From: Mustelus asterias
Taxonomy: Eukaryota
Direction: 5' to 3'
Assembly (NCBI RefSeq): GCF_964213995.1
Contig: NC_135818.1
Coordinates: forward strand, 74,648,001-74,712,000
Length of the DNA: 64,000 nucleotides
The stretch's first letter is position 1. Each line of letters starts with the position of its first letter. The notes below the pieces were generated by a model that saw only the letters and a program-made list of their open reading frames with translations, did not search any database and was not told the origin of the DNA. Positions 4,000-62,942 of the stretch are shown here, in pieces. A program made the translations under genes and the position numbers.

Positions 4000-4262
4000 A
4001 CCACCCCGAAAAGGGACAGGGGTAAGCCATTCCGTCTTTCCAAACTACCCTGCCATTCATTTATATAATGGCTATTCTCCACCTTAAATCCATTTACCTG
4101 CTTTTGATCCATAGTCCCTAATATATTTTCCTAATAAGAAAAGATATCTCCCTTTTTTGAATATTTCAATTGTCTCAACTTTTGCAGGGGAGAGAATTCT
4201 TGATTTCCAATACTCCTCATGTCAAAAAGGTGCTTTGTGATTGTTTCGAAATTGTACTTCCC
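4000..4262 (-). mobile_element. Old, diverged CR1 3' fragment
   Basis: Weak similarity to the CR1 3' end at 3612-3845. Confidence 0.4.
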
Positions 4263-4310
4263 CGTCATTTGCCTTTCTTGGATCCAAAGTGTATGCTGTC
4301 ACACTGCACT

Positions 4311-4672
4311 GCCCCCCGCCCCACCCCCCGGCCCCCCGCCCCCCGGACCCCCCCCCACCCCCCCACCCCCTGCCCCCGCGCCNNNNNNNNNNNNNNNNNN
4401 NNNNNNNNNNNNNNNNNNNNNNNNNNNNNNNNNNNNNNNNNNNNNNNNNNNNNNNNNNNNNNNNNNNNNNNNNNNNNNNNNNNNNNNNNNNNNNNNNNNN
4501 NNNNNNNNNNNNNNNNNNNNNNNNNNNNNNNNNNNNNNNNNNNNNNCCCCCCACCCCGCCCCCGCCCCCCCACTCCGCCCCCCCGCCCCCCCACTCCGCC
4601 CCTCCCGCCCTCAACCCCCCTCAACCCCCCTCAACCCCCCTCAACCCCCAACGATGCACCTTCCCCCTCAGA
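4311..4672. other. Assembly gap (N 4383-4546) with C-rich low-complexity flanks
   Basis: 164 Ns flanked by poly-C runs and (cccccctcaa)n. Confidence 0.95.
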
Positions 4673-4715
4673 TCCCCACTGAAATCCTATCATTGCTTAC
4701 ATTTCTAGAAAGAAT

Positions 4716-5067
4716 TCATAGAATCCCTACAGTGCAGAAGGAAGCCATTCGACCCATCAAATCTGCCCTGACAACAATACCACCCAGACCCTAACCTGTA
4801 ACCCCATGTATTTACCCTGCTAGTCCCCCTGACACTCAAGGGCAATTTACCGTGGTCAATCCACCTAACTCGCACATCTTTGGATTGTGGGAGGAAACCA
4901 GAGCACCCGGAGGAAGCCCAGTTGGACGGTACGGTGGCACAGTGGTTAGCACTGCTGCCTCACAGAATGTGCAAACTCAACACAGACAGTGACCCGAGGC
5001 TGGAATTGAACCCAGGTCCCTGGCGCTGTGAGGCAGCAGTGCTAACCACTGTGCCACCATACCGCCC
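4716..5067 (-). mobile_element. HE1-type V-SINE type A carrying an internal inverted insert
   Basis: Full minus-strand copy; 4915-4965 is an inverted copy of 5026-5076. Confidence 0.9.
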
Positions 5068-15036: not shown

Positions 15037-15192
15037 ACAGTAAGAAGTCTCACAACACCTTGTGAGGAGCACCTTGACTCACCTGATGAAGGAGCAAGTG
15101 ATTCCAAATAAACCTGTTGGACTTTAACCTGGTGTTGTGAGACTTCTTACTGTGCCCACCCCAGTCCAACGCCAGCATCTCCACATCATAGT
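15037..15192 (+). mobile_element. Short fold-back Penelope-derived element with internally deleted hammerhead core
   Basis: Inverted arms 15037-15059 / 15131-15153; CTGATGA at 15083; TSD tactcctgct at 15027-15036 and 15193-15202. Confidence 0.8.
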
Positions 15193-17639: not shown

Positions 17640-19266
17640 CATAAGAACATAAGAACTAGGAGGAGTAGGCCATTTGGCCCCTTGAGCCTGCTCCGCTATT
17701 CAATAAGATCATGGCTGATCTTTTTGTGGACTCAGCTCCACTTTCCCGCCCACTCACCATAACCCTTAATTTCTTTATTGTTCAAAAATCTATCTTTCTT
17801 TGCCTTGAAAACATTCAACGAGGTAGCCTCAACTGCTTCACTGGGCAGGGAATTCCACAGATTCACAACCCTTTGGATGAAGAAGTTCCTCCTCAACTCA
17901 GTCCTAAATCTACTCCCTCTTATTTTGAGGCTATGCCCCCTAGTTCTGGTTTCACCCACCAGTGGAAAAAATCTCCCTGCTTTTATCTTATCGACTCCAT
18001 TCATAATTTTATATGTTTCTATAAGATTCCCCCTCATTCTTCTAAATTCCAATGAATATAGTCCCAGTCTATTCAGTCTCTCCTCATAAGCCAACCCTCT
18101 CAACTTTGGAACCAGCCGAGTGAATCTCCTCTGCACCTCTGCCAGTGCCAGTATATCCTCTCTCAAGTAAGGAGACCAAAGCTGTACACAATATTTCAGG
18201 TGTGGCCTCACCAGCACCTTATACAACTGCAACATAACCTTCCTGTTTTTAAACTCCATCCCTCTAGCAATGAAGGACAAAATTCCATTTGCCTTCTTAA
18301 TTACCTTCTGCACCTGCAAACCAACTTTTTGCGATTCATGCACAAGGACACCCAGGTCCCTCTGCACAGCAGCATGCTGCAATTTTTTACCATTTACATA
18401 ATAGTCCATTTTACTGTTATTCCTACCAAAATGGATGGCCTCACATTTACCAACATTGTACTTCATCTGCCAGACCCTTGCCTACTCACTGAGACTATCT
18501 ATACCCCTTTGCAGACATTCAATGTCCTCGACACACTTTGCTCTTCCACCCATCTTGGTGTCATCTGTGAACTTTGACACACTACACTTGGTCCCTAACT
18601 CCAAATCATCTTTGTAAATTGTAAACAATTGCGGTCCCAACACTGATCCCTGAGGCACACCATTAGTCACTGATTGCCAACCAGAAAAACACCCATTTAC
18701 CCCCACTCTTTGCTTTCTGTTGGTTAACCAATCCTCTATCCATGCTAATACATTACCCATAACACTGTGAACCTTTATCTTATGCAGCAGCCTTTTGTGC
18801 GGCACCTTGTTGAGTGCCTTCTGGAAATCCGGATACACCACATCCACAGTTTCCCCATTGTCCAACATGCTTGTAATGTCCTCAAAGAATTCCAGTAAAT
18901 TAGTTAAACATGACCTGCCTTTCATGAACCCATGCTGGGTCTTCCCAATGGGACAATTTCTATCCAGATGTCTCGCTATTTCTTCCTTGATGATAGATTC
19001 AAGCATTTTCCCCACTACAGGAGTTAAGCTAACCAGCCTATAGTTACCCACCTTTTGTCTACCTCCTTTTTTAAACAGTGGCATCACATTTGCTGTTTTC
19101 CAATCTGCTGGAACCACCTCAGAGTTTGGCGAATTTTGGTAAATGATCGCAAGTGCATTTGCTATTTCCCCCACCATCTCTTTTAGTACCCTGGGATACA
19201 TTCCATCAGGGCCAGGAGAATTGTCTGTCTTTAGCCTTATTAGCTTGCCCAACACTACTGTTTTTA
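17640..19266 (-). mobile_element. CR1 LINE, 5'-truncated, covering most of the RT domain (pseudogenised ORF2)
   Basis: SPGPDG, QHGFMKGRSCLTNL, DFQKAL.KVPH, GVPQGSVLGPQLF, KFTDDTK; in-frame stop between ORFs 18482-19255 and 17732-18466; (aacataag)n tail. Confidence 0.95.
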
Positions 19267-19697
19267 GTGATAATGATAAATGGGCATCAAAGTGACAAAC
19301 TATGGCACTTTGAGATGCCTATTTGCTCACTATACATTGTATAGAAGTAATAGTGACAGTAGGATGTGTTAAAAGAAAGCTTTGATAGACATTTGTTTGT
19401 TGATCATTTTTGACTTTCTTAAAAAAAACTTTTTGTTACAGGGTAATAAACGTGTCAAGCATACTGACCCTATAAAGTTTCAACAGCTGAAAATGCAATC
19501 ACTCAAAACCCCTTCATCTAATCTAAATAAGCATTATGCAATTGACAGCATAGATCTGAGAATGAGAACTTTCAATTAAGCAATGTTATCCTGGAGCTCA
19601 GTTATTGAAATTTCAAGGGATACGAACGATTGACATTTTTATTGCTTGTAATTAAAAAGGAGTTATTCTTAAGAAAGTCAAAAATTATCAATGAATG

Positions 19698-21116: not shown

Positions 21117-21950
21117 ATATTTTTTGCGCACTATACAGACAAAACATACCATTCATAGAGAAGGAAATCAGAGAGTGCAGAATGTACTGTTACAGTCACA
21201 GTAGGATGTTGAGAAAGATCAACTTAATGTGAGGTAAGTCCATTCAAAAGTCTGACAGCAGCAGGGAAGAAGCTGTTCTTGAGTCGATTGGTACGTGACC
21301 TCAGATTTTTGTATCTTTTTCCCAATGGAAGAACATGGAAGAGAGAATGTCCGGGGTGCATGGGGTCCTTAATTATGCTGGCTGCTTTGCCGAGGCAGCA
21401 GGAAGTGCAGACAGGGTCAATGGATGGGAGACTGGTTTGCGTGATGGATTGGGCTACATTCACGACCTTTTGTAGTTCCTTGTGGTCTTGGGCAGAGCCG
21501 GAGCCATTCCAAGCTGTGATACAACCAGAAAGAATGCTTTCTATGGTGCATCTGTAAAAATTGGTGAGAGTCATAGCTGACATGCCAAATTTCCTTAGTC
21601 TTCTGAGAAAGTAGAGGCATTGGTGGGCTTTCTTAACTATAGTGTCGGCATGGAGGGACCAGGACAGGTTATTGGTGGTCTGGACACCTAAAAACTTGAA
21701 GCTCTCGACCCTTTCTACTTCATCCCCATTGATGTAGACAGGAGCATGTTCTCCTTTACGCTTCCTGAAGTCGATGACAATCTCCTTTGTTTTGTTGACA
21801 TTGAGGGAGAGATTATTGTTGCCACACCAGTTCATCAAATTCTCTATCTCATTCCTGTACTCTGTCTCATCATTGTTTGAGATCCGACCCACTACAGTGG
21901 TGTCGTCAGCAAACTTGAAAATCGAATTGGAGGGGAATTTGGCCACGCAG
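21117..21950 (-). mobile_element. Rex1/Babar LINE, 5'-truncated, open RT C-terminal frame
   Basis: ORF 21224-21997: KFADDTTVVGRISNNDETEYR...LNVNKTKEIVIDFRK...VESFKFLGV. Confidence 0.9.
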
Positions 21951-22692
21951 ATATTGATTATATTGATATAGAGAAAAGGGCACAATATCTTGTGCAAATT
22001 GTGTTTGATAATGTTCTGTAAGAACCATCAGATTTTCCATTATGTTAAGCGTGCGAGATAAAGATAAGTTAATGCTGTTGCACACATTCATTGTCTGACA
22101 GAAGCATACAAATGCACCTATATGTGTATGTTAAAGAAAAGTGGAGACACTCCACCCAACTCACCCACAAAAATTTCAACACTGGTACATGTCTCAACTA
22201 GGCACGTAAAACATGCGTACCAAAATCAAGATGAATTGGGCCTTACCTATTTGAGGTATGTTGCCCTGGCCCAACGAGAAATCCAATTAAAATATGTAAT
22301 ATATCCTTTCCAGCCCTGAGAAATTCCCTCTCCATATACACAAGTGGCATTGTGCAAGTATTGAGCCATATGTCAGATCAATCAGGTTCGTCCTGCACTG
22401 TTTCTTCTCTGCCTCCTGCACCATTTTATTGGACCTGTTTCTTTACCTCCATGCCAAGTTCCTCACCCAAGAGATAGGACCCAAAACAAAAGCTCAAGGC
22501 CATGCTCCAACGACAATATTCTTGGATACAGCATTTTAACTCAAAACTTAAATCGGGAGGCCCCATCCATTCTCAGACTAACCAGCAAAACTGAGCAGAA
22601 TTGGGGCCTGTGAGCTTTCTGAGGCAGCTTAATGTCAGCTGCACCTCACTGCACTGTCCTTTCATTACATGGTTGGTTAGATTGCTGCTTCC

Positions 22693-27521: not shown

Positions 27522-27698
27522 GTTGATGTGGAGATGCCGGCGTTAGACTGGGGTGGGTGTTGTAAGAAGCCTAACAAGACCAGGCTAAAGTCCAACAGGT
27601 TTATTTGTAATCACGAGCTTTCGGAGCGCTGCTCTGAAAGCTCGTGATTCCTAATAAACCTGTTGGACTTTAGCCTGGTGTTGTCAGACTTCTTATTG
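27522..27698 (-). mobile_element. Short fold-back Penelope-derived element
   Basis: Palindrome ~27563-27695 centred on hammerhead stem II; unpaired tail 27524-27557; TSD tgcttgttcc at 27512-27521 and 27699-27708. Confidence 0.8.
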
Positions 27699-28643
27699 TG
27701 CTTGTTCCTTCACCCAGATCTATTCCAAATGATAATAAAAGAGGACAACTATCTTCCCTATTTGGTCTGGAAAGGAATCCATTAGAAATTAAATGCACTA
27801 TGCTGTTTCAGTTCAAGCACAGGAATGTGAGGCCCTTATGAATGGAGGTCTTGAGGTCTTTGCCTCACAATGTTGTGGGTGTATTTTTGATGTGTTGATC
27901 ATTGAGGAATATTTTGAAGGCTTCATTCATAAAATACTACACAGTGATGCAGATGTGAGATGTTCATTGCATAAAACAAGGAAGGTTCCTCGATAGAGCT
28001 TCTTGCTTTCTGACTGTCACTGGGCAAAAACCTCTGCAGGGTCTTCGCTTAATTGGTGTTGTTAACCTTTGCCTTAACTAGGAGACAGAATCAAATCGTT
28101 GGCATCCCTAATATTAAGTTGAAGATAGGTGTCAGGCAATGGCAAAATGTTAAAACTCGCAAAAAGGAATAACAAGGCGTTGTTTCGTTTTTCTGAAATA
28201 ATGCTCAGATATGCAAGTCCACAAACATTTACAGGAAACGGATCATATATTTCTTTTTCTTTTGTTGCTTTGAAAGAGATAGGTTGACTTTCGGCTGACC
28301 TATATATGTTGCTTTTCAAAGTTCTGCAAAAAAAAACCCAGAGGAAAGATACGAAAAGAATCACACAACAGCCGCGCTCTGCGTATCTTATGCAATTATT
28401 TAAGAGGAACGTATTGGTTTCGTTGCTGCAAAGAAAAGATGTTTTCTTTTGAAAAGGCCACAACTCACGACAGTAAAACCGCCGCCTACGTTCATTGGTC
28501 GCTAGTTAGCCACATCTGTCTACCTTCCAACATCCTTCAGTCGGACCTCTGTGGGGAGGGCTAGGGGGTGCAGCTGGCTAAGACAGTCACATCTATCCAT
28601 GTTCCCTGTCATAGTCCAAGGCCTGCTTAACGTTCAGAGGTGA

Positions 28644-41140: not shown

Positions 41141-43104
41141 GTGGGAGGTCGTGTCTCACAAACATGATCGAGTTTTTCGATGAAGTGACGAAGGTGATTG
41201 ATGAGGGTTGGGCAGTGGATGTTGTCTACATGGACTTCAGGAAGGCCTTTGACAAGGTCCCTCATGGCAGACTGATGCAGAAGGTGAAGTTGCATGGGAT
41301 CAGAGGTGAGCTGGCAAGGTGGATACAAAACTGGCTCGGTCAAAGAAGACAGAGGGTAGCAGTGGAAGGGTGTGTTTCTGAATGGAGGGCTATAACAAGT
41401 GGTGTTCCTCAGGGATCAGTGCTGGGACCTTTGCTGTTTGTAATATATATAAATGATTTGGAGGAAAATGTAGCTGGTTTGATTAGTAAGTTTGCGGACG
41501 ACACAAAGGTTGGTGGATTTGCGGATAGCGATGAGGACCATCAGAGGATACAGCAGGATATAGATCAGTTGGAGACTTGGACAGAGAGATGGCAGATGGA
41601 GTTTAATCCGGACAAATGTGAGGTAATGAACATAAGAACATAAGAAATAGGAGCAGGAGTAGGCCATCTAGCCCCTCGAGCCTGCCCCGCCATTCAATAA
41701 GATCATGGCTGATCTGATAGTGGTTTAGTTCCACTTACCCGCCCGCTCCCCATATCCCTTAATTCCCTTATTGATCAGAAATCTATCTACCTGTGACTTA
41801 AACATATTTAACGAGGTAGCCTCCACTGCTTCAATGGGCAGAGAATTCCAGAGATTCACTACCCTCTGAGAGAAGAAGTTCCTCCTCAACTCTGTTCTAA
41901 ACTGACTCCCCCTTATTTTGAGGCTGTGTCCTCTAGTTCTTGTTTCCTTTCTAAGTGGAAAGAATCTCTCTGCTTCTACCCTGTCTTGCCCCTTCATTAT
42001 CTTATATGTCTCTATAAGATCTCCCCTCAGCCTTCTAAACTCCAACGAGTACAGGCCCAATCTACTCAATCTCTCCTCATAAGCTAACCCCCTCATCTCT
42101 GGTATCAACCTGGTGAACCTTCTCTGTACTCCTTCCAAGGCCAATATATCCTTCCGCAAATAATGGGACCAAAATTGCACACAGTACTCTAGTTGCGGCC
42201 TCACCAGTACTTGGTACAATTGCAGCAAGACCTCCCTGCTTTTATACTCCATCCCCTTCGCGATAAAGGCCAACATTCCATTTGCCTTCTTGATCACCTG
42301 CTGCACCTGCAAACTGAGTTTTTGCGATTCATGCATTTTGGAAGGTCTAATACAGATAGAAAATATACAGTAAATGGCAGAAGTCTTAAGAGTATTGAAA
42401 AGCAAAGGGATCTGGGTGTACAGGTACACAGGTCACTGAAAGTGGCAATGCAAGTGGAGAAGGAAGTTAAGAAGGCATACGGCATGCTTGCCTCATTGGC
42501 CGGGGTATTGAGTTTAAAAATTGGCAAGTCATGTTGCAGCTTTATAGAACCTTAGTTAGGCCGCACTTGGAATATAGTGTTCAATTTTGGTCGCCACACT
42601 ACCAGAAGGATGTGGAGGCTTGGGAGAGGGTACAGAAAAGATTTACCAGGATGTTGCCTGGTATGAGGAGAGGTTGGAGAAACTTGGTTTGTTCTCACTG
42701 GAGCGACGGAGGTTGAGGGGAGACCTGATAGAAGTCTACAAGATTATGAGAGGACTGGACAGAGTGGATAGTCAGAAGCTTTTTCCCAGGGTGGAAGAGT
42801 CAATTACTAGGAGGCATAGGTTTAAGGTGCGAGGGGCAAGGTTTAAAAGACATGTACGAGGCAGATTTTTTACACAGAGAGTGGTAGGTGCCTGGAACTC
42901 ATTGCCGGGGGAGGTAGTGGAAGCGGATACGGTAGTGACTTTTAAGGGACGTCTTAACAAGTACATGAATGAGATGGGAATAGAGGAATATGGTCCCCGG
43001 AAGGGTAGGGGGTTTTAGTTAAGTCGGTCATCATGATCTTTGCCGGCTTGGAGGGCCGAAGGGCCTATTCCTGTGCTGTAATTTTCTTTGTTCTTTGTTC
43101 TTTG
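41141..43104 (+). mobile_element. CR1 LINE, 5'-truncated, interrupted at 41629-42329
   Basis: DFRKAFDKVPH, GVPQGSVLGPLLF, KFADDTK; the frame ...DKCEVM resumes as HFGRSN after the insert; (ttctttg)n tail. Confidence 0.92.
41629..42332 (-). mobile_element. Young CR1 of another subfamily nested in opposite orientation
   Basis: Uninterrupted frame HESQKLSLQVQQ...GERAGKWN; (aacataag)n tail; same subfamily as 17640-19266. Confidence 0.92.
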
Positions 43105-43879: not shown

Positions 43880-44224
43880 TCATATAATTCCTACAGTACA
43901 GAAGGACACCATTCAGCCCATTGAGTCTGCACCAGCCCACCTTTTTATCTTACCCAGGCCCTATCCCCGTAACCCCACATATTTACCCCACTAATCTCCC
44001 TAATCTACACATCTTGGGACTCTGAGGGACAATTTAGCATGACCAGTCCACACAACCTGCACAGCTTTGGACTGTGGGAAAAAACTGGAGCACCCGGAAG
44101 AAACCCATGCAGACACGGGAATAACATGCAAATTCCACACAGACAGTCACCCAAGGCTGGAATTGAACCCGGGTCCCTGGCGCGGTGAGGCAGCAGCGCT
44201 AACCACTATGTCACTATGCCGCCA
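43880..44224 (-). mobile_element. HE1 type A nested in Gypsy
   Basis: Full minus-strand copy. Confidence 0.88.
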
Positions 44225-44292
44225 AGAAAAAATTGGTTTTAGCACACCACAATGGTTAGGTATGATTTTATCTCACATAATGGATGATAGTG

Positions 44293-44470
44293 TTTTTATT
44301 CATTCAATGGATCTGGGCTTTGCTGGCTAGGCCAGCATTCATTGCACTTCCCTAATTGCCCTTGGGAAGGTGGTGGTGAGCTGCCTTCTTGAACCACTGC
44401 AATCCATGTGGTATAGGTACACTCACAGTGTTGTTAAGGAGGGAGATCCAAGATTTTGACCCAGCAACAG
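44293..44470 (-). mobile_element. L2-like 3' end nested in Gypsy RNase H
   Basis: Reverse-complement similarity to 2540-2710. Confidence 0.65.
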
Positions 44471-45486
44471 TGTGGAGAAGCCTGTAACATATACTTCAAA
44501 TACTTTAATGAAGTCAGAACAAAAATTAGTCCCAAGTTGAGAAAGAGACATCAGCGATCATTCATCATTTTACTAAGTTCTACAGACACTTAGGCAGTGG
44601 AAAGTATACTTTTTTAATTGACCATAAAGCCCTTGTGATAAAAAAGGGAGTACCATCACTAAAGGCAGCATAACTTCAGAGGTGGCTCCCTAGTGTGATC
44701 TTAAATCAGCAGATCATGCAAATGCTAATGTTCTTCAAGGCTTCTGTGAGGACTGATTCATTTCATTCGTTTATAGCCACTGGGTTACCTTACATACACA
44801 AATAGCATGCCAATATCTACAGGGAAATTAATGAAGGAACTTGCAAGGATGTGGTGCTTAGTAAAGTGCTTAGTTATGCCAATAAATGGCTGTCTTAAAG
44901 AGTGTGATGATAAGAAATTGCAGAAGTATTTCATACATAGAAAGGAACAGAGTGTAGATCAAAGCTGTTTCTCAGGGGGTTTAAGAGTCATTATTATGTT
45001 CAATATTTGGAGAGAGATTATTAAGAGAAACTTCATCAAGAACATACAGGGTCCATGTAAAAACAGTAACAAGAAGCTATTTTTGATATCCAAAGGAAAT
45101 ATTGAAAAGTTGTGAAGAGTATCTCAGAATGAGAAATGTGTCAACCAAAATTCCTTTCATTCCATGGTAACTCATTATAAAGCTGCGAGAATGAGTACAG
45201 ATCAATTTTCTTTGAGGTGGTAAAGAAGAAGTATCTTGTTGTGGTCATTGGATGTATCAAGTGGATAAATGTTGAGTCTATGTTCAATCCCAGCAGTTTC
45301 AAAACTATTGACATTTTGGGAAGTTGGTTTGCGATTAATGAGCTGCCAAGGGTGTTGGTGTTAAATAATGGTCTACAGTTTACACCGGAAGAGTTTAAAA
45401 TATTCATGAGTTAGAATGGAATCGAACACATTCTATTGTTATATTATCCAACATTGAATAGTGCTGCAGAAAGGAGTGCATAGATT

Positions 45487-45798
45487 GGCACAGTGGCACA
45501 AGTGGTTAGCACTGCTGCTTCACAGTGCCAGGGACCTGGGTTCAATTCCGACCAAGGTTGTGCTGGCCTAACCAGCAAAGCCCAGATCCACTGAATGAAT
45601 TAAAACAAACTTCCACAGTCCAACGTTGTGCAGGTTAGATTGATTGACCATGTTAAATTGCTTCTTAGTGTCAGGGGGAATAGCAAGGTAAATATGTGGA
45701 GTTACGGAGAAAGGGCGTGGGTGGGATTGTTGTTGGTGCAGGCTCAATAGGCCGAATCGCCTCCTCCTGCACTGTAGGAATTCTACAATATTATGATT
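45487..45798 (+). mobile_element. HE1 type A with its middle replaced by a templated insert
   Basis: Head at 45487-45557, core and tail from ~45612. Confidence 0.85.
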
Positions 45799-47345
45799 GT
45801 GAGAATAAATTTGCACATGGACTCCCAAGGTGACAACCTGGGCAGTAATTTTCATGTTCCTCATCAACACAGGCTGAATGATTTTTGTTCTTGTACAAAA
45901 TCACACCATAGTTTACAACAGGCTGTTCACCTTACGGGTTAATGTTTGAACACACTTGTAAGACTAGGTTTAGTTTGTTTAGCCACAGAGTAAGAGAAAA
46001 GCAAGACAAAGTGAAGATGAGTCATGATGCACCAGGTATGAAAGCTAAAGAGTCCAGTGCTGCTCAGAAGGTCATGTTGAGGGGATAAGCAGAAATATGT
46101 GATTGAAGTTGTTGTAAAGAGACTAGTGCATTCATTTATCGAATCAATATTTGAGAGGGACTCCATCAGAGTCATGTACACCATTTGATTGAAAAAGGAA
46201 ATTTGACAGAGGAAGAGCATGGTAACCCTCCTACAGTCCAAATTCCACCTATCATCCAAAGTCAAAGTCAGAAAGGAAACAAAAGCCACAACAAAATGAA
46301 AGTTTGCCAGTATCACAGAGCCCACCTGAGGATCACATTGAGCCAAGCTCTTTGATTAAGACAAATCAGTCAATGTTACAGTCTGAACAGTCAAAGTTCA
46401 GGATTGACACAGCAATGTTGAGAGAATAGAATCAAGCTAATTGAAATGGAAGGAGATACCCAGACAGATAGAGAGAGACACCAGATTGGTTAATTGAGAG
46501 TATATAGGGAGGAAGAAGAAATACATTCTTCTTTTCATTTCTTCTCGTCAAGTGATGATATGTTAAGGAAAAAAGAAGCATTATTTATATGTAAATCATT
46601 TCGGTAGTTAGTATAAGTCATATGATTTTTGTTGCGGTTGCAGTAAAAGCAAATAAGCAGTCCGACCTGTTAAATGTGCAGGTGTTGTGGATGTTGGATT
46701 AGTTATTCTGGGAACTTACTTGGACCATTTTACGTGTTTTTTTCTGAAGTTGGGAGGGAGTGTCTACAGAGCTCTCTCTGCTGCCCTCTCTGTTGCGGAG
46801 GTGTAAATAAAGTTGTTTAATCATGGCTGCCTGCAGTCGAGCATGCATTAGTCTTAATGCAATACACATCTTTTGATTTCCATACTTACCTGCAGCCATG
46901 TTAAACAATTTCCCAAATACCAGACCGTACTGGAAATCAGAAATAAAAGCAAAAAAAAATGCCAGAAATACACAGTAGTTCTGGCACAATTTGTGGCGAA
47001 AGGAACAGGATTGACATCTCAAATTGTGACCTTTTATCAGAACTGGAAAAGGTTGGAAAGATGATGGATTTTAGCAAATAAAAGATCATCCTCCACCATT
47101 TCTACCAGCACAATACAATCACTGCAGACAATTTGCCCTCCCATGTCCTATCAGCATTCTGAAAGGGCCATCCTTTCTATGGCACTCCTGTCCACTCATC
47201 AATCACCCCAACATCCCCTCCTCTTCCTCTGCCACCTTTCCAAGCATGTGCAAGCATCGGCCTTTTACCATATCTCTCCTCACCATCCAACAAACCAAAC
47301 ACTTCATGGCGACACAGTGGCACAGCAGTTAATGCTGCCTCACAG

Positions 47346-48599
47346 GACACACGCATCTCCATTAAGGACGGTCACCTCAGCACCTCACTGTACCGCAAGC
47401 CCACGGATAACCTCAAGATGCTCCACTTCTCCAGCTTCCACCCTAAACACGTTAAAGAAGCCATCCCCTACGGACAAGCCCTCCGTATACACAGGATCTG
47501 CTCGGATGAGGAGGATCGCAACAGACACCTCCAGACGCTGAAAGATGCCATCATAAGAACAGGATATGGCGCTCGACTCATTGATCAACAGTTCCAACGC
47601 GCCACAGCGAAAAACTGCACCGACCTCCTCAGAAGACAAACACGGGACACGGTGAACAGAGTACCCTTCGTCGTCCAGTACTTCCCCAGAGCGGAGAAGC
47701 TACGGCATCTCCTCCGGAGCCTTCAACATGTCATTGATGAAGACGAACATCTCGCCAAGGCCATCCCCACACCCCCACTTCTTGCCTTCAAACAACCACG
47801 CAACCTCAAACAGACCTTGTCCGCAGCAAACTACCCAGCCTTCAGGAGAACAGTGACCACGACACCATACAACCCTGCCACAGCAACCTCTGCAAGACGT
47901 GCCGGATCATCGACACGGATGCCATCATCTCACGTGAGAACACCATCTACCAGGTACACGGTACCTACTCTTGCAACTCGGCCAACATTGTCTACCTGAT
48001 ACGCTGCAGGAAAGGATGTCCCGAGGCATGGTACATTGGGGAAACCATGCAGACGCTACGACAACGGATGAATGAACACCGCTCGACAATCACCAGGCAA
48101 GACTGTTCTCTTCCTGTGGGGGAGCACTTCAGCAGTCACGGGCATTCAGCCTTGGATCTTCAGGTAAGCGTTCTCCAAGGCGGCCTTCACGACACACAAC
48201 AGCGCAGAGTCGCTGAGCAGAAACTGATAGCCAAGTTCCGCACACATGAGGACGGCCTAAACCAGGATGTTGGATTTATGTCACATTATCAGTAACCCCC
48301 ACAGCTTGCCTCCTGGGCTTGCAGAATCTCACGAGCTGCTCTGTCTGGAGACAATACACATCTCTTTAACCTGTGTTTAATGCTCCCTCCACCCACATTG
48401 TCTGTACCTTTAAGACCTGGCTGGCTTCAGGGATTTGCATTCTAACCAGTATTCTGTAACTTGATGTTGTGTCGCTGTGCACTGTTTGAGAGCACATTTC
48501 CACTCCATCTGACAAAGGAGCAGCGCTCCGAAAGCTTATGGTATTTGCTACCAAATAAACCTGTTGGACTTTAACCTGGTGTTGCGAGACTTCTTCCTG
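47346..48599 (+). mobile_element. Young 5'-truncated Penelope-like element (RT thumb, Cys linker, GIY-YIG endonuclease, terminal repeat)
   Basis: LYRKPTD..MLHFSSFHPKH..AIPYGQALRIHRICS; frameshift near 47815; PCHSNLCKTC; NIVYLIRC...WYIGETMQTLRQRMNEH; CpG-rich; TSD gcctcacag at 47337-47345 and 48600-48608. Confidence 0.92.
48505..48541 (+). ncRNA. Minimal type I hammerhead ribozyme motif in the PLE terminal repeat (core G8>A)
   Basis: CCAU CUGACAA A GGAGC AGC GCUCC GAA AGCU U AUGG. Confidence 0.65.
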
Positions 48600-48869
48600 G
48601 CCTCACAGCGCCAGGGACTCAGGCTCAATTCCCGGCTTGGGTCACTGTCTGTGTGGAGTCTGCACATTCTCCCCGTGTCGGCGTGGGTTTCCTCCGGGTG
48701 CTCCGGTTTCCTCCTGCAGTCTGAAAGACGTGCTGGTTAGGTGCATTGGCCACGCTAAATTCTCCCTCAGTGTACCCGAACAGGCACCGGAGTGTGGTGA
48801 CTGGGGGATTTTCACAGTAACTTCATTGCAGTGTTAATGTAAGCCTACTTATGACACTAATAAATAAAC
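48600..48869 (+). mobile_element. HE1 type B (its head lies at 47307-47345, split off by the Penelope insertion)
   Basis: The SINE sequence resumes exactly at the duplicated gcctcacag. Confidence 0.9.
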
Positions 48870-49360
48870 AAGGTGAGACAGCGGTTAATGTGTGACTCAT
48901 CTCACTTTGGTACACTGCTTCCAATGCTCCACAAGGAAGGGACTAAACCCAGATTGGGGGACCAACATGCGGGACTCTGCCATTCAACCGACACGTATGA
49001 CCTGAACTTCCCTCGCTTGTCACAAGGAGTCTCCACCTTTCTCTCACACTAACTTCTCTTTCCTTGGCCCACCGCAGTATTCCAATGGAGCTTAACCTCA
49101 TCTTTCAACTTAACCCAATCATTGTGTTCAACCATTTCAAAAGCATAATCTCGGCCCTCATTTTATTTCCTTTTCTTTGCAGGCCTTGGTTTTAGTCCTA
49201 TTTTTCCCTTCTTTCTGCTTTCAGGCAGCTGTTCATTCACCTGCCTTCACACCTCCTCTGGACACATCTTTTGTTTCTTTGTCACTGTAAAGTGGGCCTT
49301 ACACCACCAACATTTTTGTCATTTAATCACTTCTGCCTTTCATCCTATCACAGACCTTCA

Positions 49361-49715
49361 AAGAACAAAGAACAGAGAACAAAGAACAGTATAGCACAGG
49401 AACAGGCCCTTTGGCCCTCCAAGCCTGCGTCGATCACATTGTCCTATGTAGACAAACCGCCTGTATCCCTCTATTCCCCGTCTGTTCATATGTCTATCCA
49501 GTCTTAAATGGCGCTAACGTGACGGCCTCAACCAGCTCACTTCAGGCATTCCAGGCCCCCACCAGTCTCTGTGCAAAAAAGCTTCCCCCAAACATCTCCA
49601 CTGAACATTTCCCCCCTTACTTTGAACTTGTGCCTCCTTGTAATTGTCATCTCTGCCCTGGGAAAAAGCTTCCAACTGTTCACCCTATCTGCATCCCACA
49701 TATTTTTATAAACTT
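49361..49715 (-). mobile_element. CR1 LINE 3' end
   Basis: (aaagaac)n tail; similar to 19869-20284. Confidence 0.8.
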
Positions 49716-50123
49716 CGATTTAACTTCTACTCCTTTTGTTCCTTTTCCATCCTCCCTGTTTTCACTTGCTTAGAATCTATCACATTTCTAAATTGTCCGA
49801 TGGAAGGTCATTGACCTGCAGTATCTGTTCCTCTCTTCACAGATGCTTCCTGACCTGATGACTATTGCCACCATTTCTATTCCCAATTATAAGAACTGGT
49901 GAGATTAGCCCATCTAGCTATTGCTTCCATATAAAATCTAAATGCTCCTGAAACATTTGTTAGGATTCAGTTTATCTCCACACTCTAAAACCTTGATGTA
50001 AATACATTCCCAGCTTCCTTCCTCTTCCCTTGTGTTAGGCTCAGGGGGTTGAATGGCCTTTCCCAATGACCCTCTCACCCCACTATCATTTTAATGGCTT
50101 ATCGCAGTGCCCCCTACAAAGTG

Positions 50124-50470
50124 TTCATTCGTTCATGGCACATGGGCATCGCTGGCTGGCCCAGCATTTATTGCCCATCCCTGAGGGCATTTAAGAGTCA
50201 ACCACATTGCTGTGGATCTGGAGTCACATGTAGGCCAGACCGGGTAATGACGATAGATTACCTTTCCTAAAGGACATTATTGAACCAGATGGGTTTTTAC
50301 AACAATCGACAATGGCTTCATGGTCACCATTAGACTTCTAATTCCAGATTTTTATTGAATTCAAATTTCTCCATCGGCCATGGTGGGATTCGAACTCGGC
50401 TCCCGAGATCATTATCCTGGGTCTCTGGATTACTAGTCTCATGACAATACCACTATGCCACTGCCTCCCC
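50124..50470 (-). mobile_element. tRNA-derived SINE with L2-like tail
   Basis: Same family as 7945-8286. Confidence 0.8.
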
Positions 50471-50694
50471 CTGCAATGTAATGTCTCCACTGCTGTACAA
50501 TGACCAGAGTAATATTTAATGCATCAGGTTCATTGTTCTAAACAAGCTCATTGTTATTTCATGGGACTTATACTGCACTTCTCTGAGTATCTACTTGAAG
50601 GTTTTTCGCTGTCTCTTTTACCATTATTTCATTGCTAATGACGCAGTAAGAAGTCTCACAACAGCAGTTTAAAATCTAATAGGTTTATTTGGAA

Positions 50695-50731
50695 TCACAA
50701 GCTTTCGGAGCACTGCTCCTTCCTCAGGTGA
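50695..50731 (-). ncRNA. Minimal type I hammerhead ribozyme, intact core
   Basis: Minus strand reads UCAC CUGAGGA A GGAGC AGU GCUCC GAA AGCU U GUGA. Confidence 0.7.
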
Positions 50732-50847
50732 GTGGAGAGTTAGATTCAGAAACACGGCATATATAGATAGAGATGCAATTGCAAGATAATGGTTGAAATC
50801 ATCTTGCAATTGTGTCTCGGTCTATATATGTAAACCCAACTCTCCAC

Positions 50848-50884
50848 TCACCTGAGGAAGGAGCAGCGCTCCAAAAGCTCATGA
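50848..50884 (+). ncRNA. Minimal hammerhead motif, mutated (G12>A, stem I mismatch)
   Basis: UCAC CUGAGGA A GGAGC AGC GCUCC AAA AGCU C AUGA. Confidence 0.55.
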
Positions 50885-51034
50885 TTCCAAATAAACCTGT
50901 TGGACTTTAACCTGGTGCTGTGAGACTTCTTACTGTGCCCACTCCAGTCGAAAGCCGGCATCTGCACATCATTGCTAATGACAGTCTTGATAAGAGGCAA
51001 GCGTGGATATTGCAAGTTTTCCTATGAGGAAATT

Positions 51035-51898
51035 GTAAAGTTAAAGCACACAGGATTGCAGGTAATGTCTTGAGATGAATAGAAAGCTGGTTAGCAGATA
51101 GGAAGCAAAGAGTTGGCATAAATGGGTATTTTTCTGATTGGCAGTCAGTGAGTAATTGGGTTCCACAGGGATCTGTGCTCGGACCCCCAACTGTTCACTA
51201 CATATTAATGATTTGGAAGAGGGAACTGAATGTATAATCTCCAAATTTGCAGATGATACAAAGTTGGGTGGGACGGTGAGCTGGGAGGAGGATGCAGAGA
51301 TGCTTCAGCGTGATTTGGACAGGCTGAGTGTGTGGGCATCTGCATGGCAGGTGCAGTATAATGTGAATAAATATGAGGTTATCCACTTTGGTAGCAATAA
51401 TAGGAAGACAGATTATTATTTGAATGGGTGTAAATTGAGAGAGGGAGACCTTGGAGTCCTCGTGCATCAGTCACTGAAAATAATCATGTAGGTACAGCAG
51501 GCAGTAAAGAAGGCAAATGGTATGTTGGCCTTCGTTGTGAAAAGATTTGAATAAAAGGATAGGGGTACTTTGCTACAATTGTGTAGGGCATTGTTGAGGC
51601 CATACCTGGAGTATTGTAAACTGAGGTGAGTATTAGAACTGAGGTAAGGAGAAATTTCTTCACCCGAAGGATGGCGAATGTGTAGAATTCATTACCAAAG
51701 AAAGTAGTTGAGGCCAAAATGTTGTGTGATTTCAAGAAGAAATGAGATATAGCTCTTGGGGCTAAAGGGATCAAGGGATATGGGAGGAAGGGGGATCAGA
51801 ATATTGAATTTGATGATCAGCCATGATCAAAATGAATGGCGGAGCAGGCTCGAAGGGCCAAATGGCCTACTCCTGCTTCTGGTTTCCATGTTTCTATG
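51035..51898 (+). mobile_element. CR1 LINE with internal deletion near 51620
   Basis: gttccacagggatctgtgct (VPQGSV), SKFADDTKLGG, YNVNKYEVIHFG; 3' UTR ends tttctatg. Confidence 0.85.
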
Positions 51899-52322
51899 AA
51901 AGATTGGACTGGGTAGACTTGTATCCACCAGAGTTTGGAAGTGGAAGAAGCAATTTGATGGGAACATATAGGGTCATGAGGATCTTGACCAGGTGGATTT
52001 GAAGAGGATGTTTCACTTTGTGGAAAAAGCTGGAACTAGGGGTTAAAAATAAGGGATCGTCCATTTAAGACAGAGATTAGGATAAGTTATTTTTCCCTCC
52101 AAGGATTGTGAGTCTTTGGAACTCCCTTCCTCAAAAGGCAGTGGAAGCAGAGTCTTTGAATGTTTCTAAGGGAGGGGTAGATAGATTCCTGATGAACAAG
52201 GGGGTGAAAGGTTATCGAGGGCAGGTGGGAGATTACAATCTGATCAGCCGTGACCTTATTGAATGGTGGAGCAGGCTCGAGGGGCAGAGGGGTCTACTCC
52301 TGCTCCTAATTCATATGCATGT
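51899..52322 (+). mobile_element. Older CR1 3' end
   Basis: SLWNSLPQKAVEAESLNV..DRFLMNKGVKGY. Confidence 0.75.
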
Positions 52323-52371
52323 TTGGTGCAGAGTTACATTTGTATATATGGGCACAGATGCCTATAAATTA

Positions 52372-52652
52372 GAGGCAGAATTTTACGGCCCCTCCCACCG
52401 ATGGGATTTTCCAGTCCTGCCGAAGTTAGAGGACTTAGAAGCATAGAAGCATAGAAAATTACAGCTCAGAAACAGACCTTTTGGCCCTTCTTGTCTGTGC
52501 CGAACCATTTTTTGCCTAGTCCCACTGACCTGCACTTGGACCATATCCCTCTCATCCATGATAGAAGTATAGAAAATTACTAGACTTTTGAGCAGCTCGC
52601 CACATTTTCCAGCCCTGCCCAGGCATGGCGGAGCTGTCAGACTCCACCCCGG
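52372..52652. mobile_element. MITE split by a short minus-strand CR1 tail (~52436-52560)
   Basis: ggcagaattttacggc...gggattttccagtcctgcc on the left, attttccagccctgccc on the right; (catagaa)n tail between them. Confidence 0.5.
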
Positions 52653-52759
52653 ATCTTGATAAACCTTCCATAAATTGGACCTAAGCATTAGGTTTCAGCC
52701 TTTTAATATATAAAATAGACGCCAGTCTGCCAGGATAGCATTCACCAACAGCCGGGCCC

Positions 52760-53076
52760 TCATAGAATCATAGAATCCTACAGTGCAGAAGGAGGCCATT
52801 TGGCCCATCGATTCTGCACCGACCACAATCCCACCCAGGCCCCATCCCCATAACCACATACCTTTACCCTGCTCATCCCCCTGACACTGAGAGGCAATTT
52901 AGCATGGCCAATGCATCTAGCCAGCATGTTTGTCAGACTGTGGGAGGAAACAGGAGCACCCGGAGGAAGCCCACGCAGACATGGGGAGAATGTGCACAGA
53001 CAGTGACCCAAGCCGGGAACTCAGATCCCTGGCGCTGTGAGGCAGCAGTGCTAACCGCTGTGCCACCGTGCCGCCC
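52760..53076 (-). mobile_element. HE1-type V-SINE type A
   Basis: Full minus-strand copy. Confidence 0.9.
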
Positions 53077-61933: not shown

Positions 61934-62745
61934 AACCATATCTTCCAGCAGAAGTCACTGGATAATGATCAGGATCAGACACCATGGCAGATTCCCTAAC
62001 CTGAGCTTCTGAGACCAATCAAAGTTCCCCAATGTCACTCGGCTGGGTTTTCCTGCCTCAGTAAGGACTGGGGGCTGAAGGGACATCTTCCTGGTCCTGG
62101 TCTGTATGGACAGGCTTTTATCATTAACTGAATTACTGAATCTAGCAAGCCTGCAACTGAATGCACTCACAGAACATCTGACGCCACTGCTTAATATCTC
62201 GAACAACAGGCCTGCGATCTCACTGAAATATTTAGCACTTTAGGTGAAGAATTCAGTTTTATCTTCTGGCCTTCCAATGACATTCTGCTGTCTGAGGATT
62301 ACGACCCTTTTCTGGGCATGTTTCTACACCATTATAACGACATCCCCTTACCCCACCACACACCCTCCTCTCCCCCCATCCCAACACCCCAACAAATATA
62401 CATTTCATTAAGTAATAGATTAGTTCTGTAAACTTCGGCCTTTTCAGAGATATCTTGCTTAGTTCTTGTCTCCAGTGTGTCGATGCTCATCTCCTCACAG
62501 CAATGCTAAACATACGGATCCTTATACTGGAGTGACTTTCCCAGCTCATTCCCCCATTCCTGGAGAGGCAACTTTGGAAAAAGGAAGTGGGATGCGGGTT
62601 CATGCTGGGGGCAGCATCACACCTCAGGCTGGCTTTCGAGGGAGTCTTCTTGCCTCTGAGAACGTTTCCGAGATGTGGGATCCCGGAGACAGTGGCGGAT
62701 AGCCAATCAAGGCACTTGAAAAGACAATTGAGCCAAGTTCTTTCT

Positions 62746-62942
62746 CACAACACTAGGTTAAAGTCCAACAGGTTTATTTGGAATCATGAGTTTTCCGAGT
62801 GCTGCTCCTTCATCACTCACCTGATGAAGGGGCAACGCTCCGAAAGTTCGTGATTCCAAATAACCCTGTTGGACTTTAACCTAGTGTTGTGAGACTTCTA
62901 ATTGTGCCCACCCAAGTCCAACTCCGGAATCTCCACATCACG
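62746..62942 (+). mobile_element. Fold-back Penelope-derived element with hammerhead motif
   Basis: Inverted arms ~62743-62815 / 62822-62894; unpaired tail to 62940; TSD agttctttct at 62736-62745 and 62943-62952. Confidence 0.82.
62817..62853 (+). ncRNA. Minimal type I hammerhead ribozyme, core intact
   Basis: UCAC CUGAUGA A GGGGC AAC GCUCC GAA AGUU C GUGA. Confidence 0.68.

Follow-up and report, generated by a model that had tools for sequence, protein, structure and literature searches.

The hairpin at positions 50629–50982 of the window (the whole 64,000-nucleotide stretch of Mustelus asterias DNA that we analysed) is very probably a single old insertion of two 5'-truncated ends of a Neptune-type Penelope-like element (PLE), placed head to head, with both target nicks likely having primed reverse transcription in one event. 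The locus is an ordinary dead insertion, this very common PLE having left its stubs by the tens of thousands, and the family is more informative than the locus. The layout (an inverted pseudo-LTR, or pLTR, a one-sided tail and opposed hammerheads) has already been published (PMC3846280, PMC8557442, PMC4209133). The set of stubs turns two questions into counts: how PLE insertions acquire inverted ends and a one-sided tail, a process that PMC8557442 describes as undefined, and whether the minimal hammerheads of PLEs cleave RNA in vivo. We regard the evidence as evenly poised on a wider reading, in which the stubs preserve a fossil read-out of the PLE cycle: from one RNA, a single dimer would start cDNA on both target strands, each at its own fixed internal site, so that one arm must carry a tail and the other none, and either the pLTR promoter or the hammerhead would have set the RNA 5' ends at which the cDNAs stop.

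The insertion is bounded by a target-site duplication, TCATTGCTAATGAC, present at 50629–50642 and again at 50969–50982; the first four nucleotides of the right copy, TCAT, also fit the element's own end, leaving that boundary ambiguous. Between the duplications lie an inverted tail-less (‘short’) arm on the minus strand (50643–50799), corresponding to PLE 3' UTR/pLTR sequence from −191 to −36 relative to the ORF's ATG, and a tailed arm on the plus strand (50798–50968), comprising the same 3' UTR/pLTR region from −182 to approximately +1. The arms meet at a head-to-head junction with a 2-nt AT overlap (50798–50799), and the tailed arm ends in the PLE ‘tail’ (50936–50968, plus strand), the 33–35 nt that separate two fixed 3' ends. 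The inverted repeat is made up of two segments, 50644–50746 with 50833–50935 (88%) and 50758–50790 with 50798–50830 (85%), and its predicted fold reaches −207 and −227 kcal/mol on the two strands (z scores of −18.8 and −25.5), a value that none of 100 shuffled sequences equalled. A preliminary description of this DNA had reported 14-bp direct repeats around a long imperfect inverted repeat with an unpaired tail, and had taken the unit for a non-coding, ORF-less product of PLE machinery with PLE-type minimal hammerheads; the repeats are present where it placed them, the unpaired tail measures 33 nt, and the assignment to PLE machinery is supported.

Compared with the subfamily consensus, the short arm carries 15 substitutions in 156 nt, and the tailed arm carries 11 (175 sites) together with a 9-nt deletion between its TATA and initiator; a single change is common to both. 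The hairpin is thus an old insertion whose arms are decaying separately. The minus-strand arm contains a putative outward-facing pLTR promoter (50733–50765), made up of TATATAT (50765–50759) and, 32 nt further downstream, a CCACTC that resembles an initiator (A at 50733). The inner end of the copy lies upstream of this TATA box, indicating that its template was a longer RNA. Contigs from four sequence runs carried no start or end information; no piece spanned the hairpin, and its unique flanks were almost uncovered. A perfect splice-donor consensus, CAG/GTGAGT, occurs on the plus strand at 50725–50733, just upstream of the hammerhead core; the antisense pLTR strand of most family arms carries it as well, so each head-to-head stub offers a donor on either strand.

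The abundance of the parent element is considerable: a 29-mer of the arm has 171,007 exact matches in the 3.68-Gb genome, and in forty random 10-kb stretches (400 kb) we counted 38 such ends and 9 two-armed insertions, with element sequence amounting to 13.8 kb; a rough extrapolation from these gives something like 80,000 head-to-head pairs. In two copies of the arm's own subfamily (L043 and L054) the arm continues directly into the end of an ORF. A further locus, L131, consists of tandem units of ∼3,015 bp with a reverse transcriptase domain (Pfam RVT_1, E = 7e-10), and its translation contains a GIY-YIG-type motif (VVYLIRC..C..AWYIG) and a CX4CxxC linker (CHSNLCKTC); the tail in these units extends exactly as far as the ATG of the ORF. 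A CX2-5CxxC linker ahead of the endonuclease is described as the mark of Neptune and Nematis and as missing from Penelope and Poseidon (PMC8557442). Poseidon was considered as the parent and dropped on finding the CX4CxxC motif. By its linker the parent appears to be an EN+ PLE of Neptune/Nematis type, and we label it Neptune-type because Neptune is the linker-bearing clade reported in vertebrates. Tandem pLTR structure, an inverted 5'-truncated copy, a one-sided tail and a target duplication are all present in the family. Young copies that are 97–99% identical, together with the tandem units in the genome, indicate that the family was active recently and is open to biochemical study.

One regularity among the two-armed insertions concerns their ends. 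In 161 insertions that were not selected on this feature, 153 combine one short end with one tailed end, while half would be expected if the ends were chosen independently; a biased set, in which 26 of 28 had this combination, was left out of the 161. About five of the eight remaining insertions look like decayed or partly deleted tails, and the rest are complex or true exceptions. Duplications of at least 9 bp accompany 122 of the 153 insertions (86 of them 12–14 bp long), and on each strand the targets favour C-T-G at 3–5 nt beyond the duplication (n = 80), a preference not clearly present in the flanks of the 50629–50982 copy. Of 51 pairs, 23 have a longer tail-less arm, 24 a longer tailed arm and 4 equal arms, and the arms end no more than 20 nt apart in 23 of the 51, compared with 4.1 by shuffling.

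Partner arms also resemble one another in sequence. Fourteen young pairs contain 16 shared rare alleles in ∼11 kb (1.45/kb, against 0.07/kb between loci), a count from which L131 was excluded as a tandem. Among 30 young pairs, of which 20 were scored, overlap with the target at the tail end is 1.5 nt, above the null value of 0.70 (p = 0.002), and at the short end it is 1.0 against 0.67, short of significance (p = 0.09). Single-arm copies carry either end (29 short and 12 tailed), indicating that two-ended synthesis is common and not obligatory; the relative shares of one-armed and two-armed insertions are rough, owing to the small sample of unselected single arms.

The short-plus-tail rule, the shared rare alleles and the symmetric target suggest that each of the two nicks primes cDNA at an internal start site of its own, probably on one RNA. 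Reading the steps off dead copies, we propose that a dimeric RT-endonuclease would nick a symmetric site with a stagger of 12–14 nt, after which one 3' end would start cDNA at a proximal internal site and the other at a distal site 35 nt downstream. Both cDNAs would probably be copied off one RNA, with 1–2 nt of pairing helping at the tail end; both would then stop early (9 nt apart at 50629–50982) and be joined through a short microhomology. In vitro, an anole PLE enzyme cuts both target strands and extends each of them, beginning reverse transcription at two internal sites, one on either side of the tail (PMC11167929); that enzyme is a Poseidon and not a Neptune, and its start site is described there as showing no strand difference.

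A variant of this explanation, which we hold to be possible and still rather less probable than not, assigns an independent RNA to each nick and enzyme subunit and lets protein geometry set the asymmetry between short and tailed ends. The shared alleles could instead reflect one dominant source locus, whose transcripts would likewise have alleles and 5' ends in common, or gene conversion between arms. RNA 5' ends held in common (the start site and the ribozyme cut) explain much of the arm symmetry without a single molecule, which counts against the one-RNA model, as does the observation that only 5 of 24 pairs with both arms longer than 200 nt are symmetric; some old hairpins, L045 for example, even have arms of visibly different haplotype. 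On the other side, L132 and L170, with arms of 1–2 kb that end 10–12 nt apart, fit one broken RNA more easily.

Priming from both nicks has also to be weighed against a self-priming fold-back, proposed in PMC3846280 and PMC8557442, in which a cDNA or antisense template would fold over and prime its own copying, the one-sided tail resulting from endonuclease trimming of one end. The frequency of near-perfect palindromic junctions and near-equal arms, and the alleles common to both arms, are what such a process would produce. A tail-less arm, however, cannot template a tailed one, and in the 23 of 51 pairs where the tail-less arm is the longer it is so by 500–1,800 nt in several cases; short-ended single arms with their own duplication also exist. 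We therefore consider self-priming improbable as the general route, and it could hold for a subset of perfectly symmetric copies.

The preliminary description had offered two possibilities for the hairpin, a mobile non-autonomous family or a one-off truncated insertion, and had looked to the junctions to separate them. BLAST with the whole element found ∼40 scored loci of like layout at 70–86% match; such a query selects for similar junctions, and the centres of 25 aligned loci were nonetheless varied. A pattern search returned 59 hairpins that fold back within the same 40-nt stretch, and the 50629–50982 junction appeared once among the 50 of these that were listed. At least 7,088 hairpins have two opposed cores and fold back just upstream of them, and 9,764 short hairpins fold back further downstream, with varied junctions among the 50 listed in each case; at loci not chosen for shape, the inner ends range from −55 to −2,345. 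A different junction recurs in 31 of 100 matches listed, and is explained by a 6-nt microhomology, so that recurrence alone is no proof of descent. Comparison of 30 hairpins gave 12 same-junction pairs, of which ten shared no arm asymmetries, one shared one and one shared two, against a background of 0.25. Re-mobilisation of a recurring junction was accordingly left unsupported, with asymmetries near background and short and tailed arms swapped.

A family of hairpins transcribed whole and re-inserted by PLE proteins is thus largely refuted and, in our estimate, highly improbable: the alike layout of the ∼40 loci, a few recurring junctions (including one complex junction in L007, L018, L024 and L173) and two tail/tail hairpins (L002 and L005) speak for it, while the full-length matches were query-selected, junctions are diverse from copy to copy, arms of same-junction pairs share variants at close to the background rate, and at the recurring junction the inner end that extends further belongs to the short arm in L007 and L018 but to the tailed arm in L024.

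Each arm of the hairpin contains a hammerhead motif, identified by inspection against the published description of minimal hammerheads. The minus-strand motif (50695–50731) is of minimal type I and has an intact core (UCAC CUGAGGA A GGAGC-AGU-GCUCC GAA AGCU U GUGA), with a predicted cut between 50699 and 50698; it displays the CUGANGA/GAA core, the extra nucleotide, the G10.1-C11.1 pair, the palindromic AGCU and a UH site. The plus-strand motif (50848–50884) fails this description through G12>A (50873) and has a second lesion, a G>A change in stem I (50881). Both are CG>CA relative to the consensus, and hence of CpG type, and other copies read mostly G at the matching positions. The preliminary description was right about the intact minus-strand core and about G12>A; the UCAC/GUGA stem I that it assigned to each arm holds for the minus strand, whereas the plus strand has UCAC/AUGA, the lesion at 50881 (missing from that account) breaking the stem I pair that adjoins the core. 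An Rfam scan of 44000–53000 at E ≤ 5 gave five chance matches, none of them a hammerhead.

Across 500 family arms, 346 motifs were recognisable and 261 of these have an intact core, a share biased upwards by a motif finder that tolerated one mismatch per half. The extra nucleotide is A in 341 of the 346, and N7 and N17 vary as allowed. Stem I pair 1 is C-G in 239 motifs and U-A in 61, and pair 4 is U-A in 115, C-G in 69 and U-G in 32, but U-U in 83; in stem II, pair 3 is A-U (233), G-U (87) or G-C (18) and pair 4 is G-C (318) or A-U (6). Covariation in stems I and II, on which the preliminary description had made ribozyme function depend, is therefore found as compensatory changes between subfamilies, which represent a few subfamily-level events and not independent counts. 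These changes, and the permitted variation at N7 and N17, argue that the motif is maintained by selection in the active element, matching the account in PMC4209133.

The hammerheads are passengers of the pLTR, and their position on opposite strands makes a dimer in cis impossible. A transcript of either polarity had been expected to be a rod-like RNA containing a ribozyme; this is correct as sequence and does not hold as a fold, since read-through from either strand transcribes the antisense arm ahead of the sense arm, and stem II then has a predicted probability of at most 1e-13. As a rod, the 50629–50982 copy is expected to be inactive. In a short RNA from the predicted promoter of the minus arm, stem II is predicted at 0.93, but as a monomer; with its TATA, initiator and core kept, that arm could yield a short ribozyme-bearing RNA.

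The 5' ends of genomic copies were mapped in 335 arms of clear subfamily (157 unselected and 178 from junction-selected windows). In 58 of them the end falls at CCACTC, 33–37 nt before the predicted cut and 32 nt downstream of TATATAT, and this pile-up likely corresponds to the pLTR start site; the Penelope promoter has been placed in the pLTR (PMC2377424). The antisense splice donor CAG/GTGAGT was rejected as a cause of the peak, which lies 4–8 nt further upstream, at the initiator-like site. Another 20 of the 335 arms end at −1 to +1 of the predicted cut, compared with 61 over the 29 positions upstream. Genome-wide, the 5' ends of the C/D subfamilies in successive 3-nt windows number 327 (−7 to −5), 450 (−4 to −2), 1,436 (−1 to +1) and 1,165 (+2 to +4). 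By reading, about 24 of 100 listed at −1 to +1 are untruncated variants and 31 of 100 listed at +2 to +4 represent one microhomology junction, giving corrected counts of ∼1,090 and ∼800, respectively. The resulting step up at the predicted cut is ∼3-fold, with a raised shoulder downstream, which is the pattern that a cleaved RNA end would leave; the AT at the cut can add to it, as can a general increase in numbers as inserts get shorter. If the read-out of the PLE cycle outlined above is true, the surplus of 5' ends found at the scissile bond would give genomic evidence of germ-line cleavage by a vertebrate PLE minimal hammerhead.

Several known systems share parts of this organisation. In L1 twin priming a second target nick likewise primes on the element RNA, giving a 5' inversion with a microhomology joint, but the inverted part is an upstream, non-overlapping piece, whereas the PLE arms repeat one 3' end. 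EN+ PLE insertions such as Pen2a_Av of Adineta vaga have the same head-to-head inverted 5'-truncated copy and a tail of 30–40 bp at one end only, along with a short duplication, a palindromic or overlapping junction and a TATA plus initiator in the pLTR (PMC3846280, PMC8557442, PMC2377424). They differ in that both copies here are cut back to the non-coding end, hence the lack of an ORF in between, and the one-tail rule, arm symmetry and target symmetry, described qualitatively in those three sources, are counted here on 50–161 insertions.

The motifs likewise agree with the metazoan PLE minimal hammerheads of PMC4209133 in their short stem I, long stem II, extra nucleotide after A9, G10.1-C11.1 pair and palindromic 15.2–16.2, and dual motifs on opposite strands, 100–700 bp apart, were already reported there; ours are putative ribozymes of shark-type Neptune subfamilies. 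The Poseidon element PAc of Anolis carolinensis is also a predicted dimer with a hammerhead in its pLTR; it belongs to another clade, its ORF starts inside the hammerhead and not ∼90 nt after the cut as here, and that study saw no RNA ends at the hammerhead cut (PMC11167929). Non-LTR retrozymes are likewise non-coding, carry a type I hammerhead and derive from PLE pLTRs, but they consist of units repeated head to tail, able to cleave in dimeric form and to circularise, unlike a hairpin made of one head-to-head pair with a private junction (PMC7229834; bioRxiv 10.64898/2026.07.22.740005). A retrozyme identity was ruled out on this basis, there being one head-to-head pair and no head-to-tail repeats. 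Among the papers that a literature search brought up, none tallies how short and tailed ends are paired or how many genomic copies begin at the hammerhead cut.

The window contains other members of the same group. A 5'-truncated and frameshifted coding PLE of a sister subfamily (47347–48595, plus strand) is a single arm with a short end, a 9-bp duplication and a GIY-YIG remnant (E = 2.7e-4, just under cut-off). The outer arm of the hairpin had been said to end this element too; the match is there, at 84% over 101 nt, and the element belongs to a different subfamily. Its stem I is CCAU/AUGG and its upstream sequence differs, making it a relative of the hairpin and not its parent. The first 274 nt are 98–99% identical to at least 39 other copies, indicating that the fragment is young. 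It was inserted (47334–48640) within a tRNA-derived SINE-like repeat, which presumably resembles HE1, with the 9-bp duplication GCCTCACAG. Three sister head-to-head stubs, with no strand assigned, lie at 15037–15187 (a short arm of 23 nt plus a tailed arm), 27525–27701 (folding back within stem II) and 62743–62939 (folding back at the 5' side of the hammerhead).

Among the remaining family copies, the L131 array (G000:C4:67601500-67611400) is a partial tandem whose ∼3,015-bp units are 97.8% identical, with a stop or frameshift in each, and it adjoins an inverted arm from a different subfamily. One full-length unit has only the tail in front (L158:1855), and another (L141:1669-4809) is preceded by a pLTR that starts at −136, near the predicted start site. 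Five loci (L089, L096, L140, L155 and L168) break alignment at a shared place (−363 to −347), probably a subfamily indel of ∼60 nt in the 3' UTR. L005 (G000:C74:1716015-1719352) and L184-L185 are arrays of alternating inverted arms, tail-to-tail contacts included, which could result from insertion into earlier copies or from local amplification. The hairpins L076 and L077 (G000:C1:460763 and 462548) lie 1.8 kb apart and have an identical junction and private changes in common; their duplications differ and their short/tail orientation is opposite, possibly reflecting two events off one template. Elsewhere in the window, several overlapping open frames on both strands surround an N run at 4161–4794, probably a simple repeat, and open frames of 235–278 aa at 17732–19318, 21224–22027 and 41725–42432 (minus strand) are probably LINE fragments.
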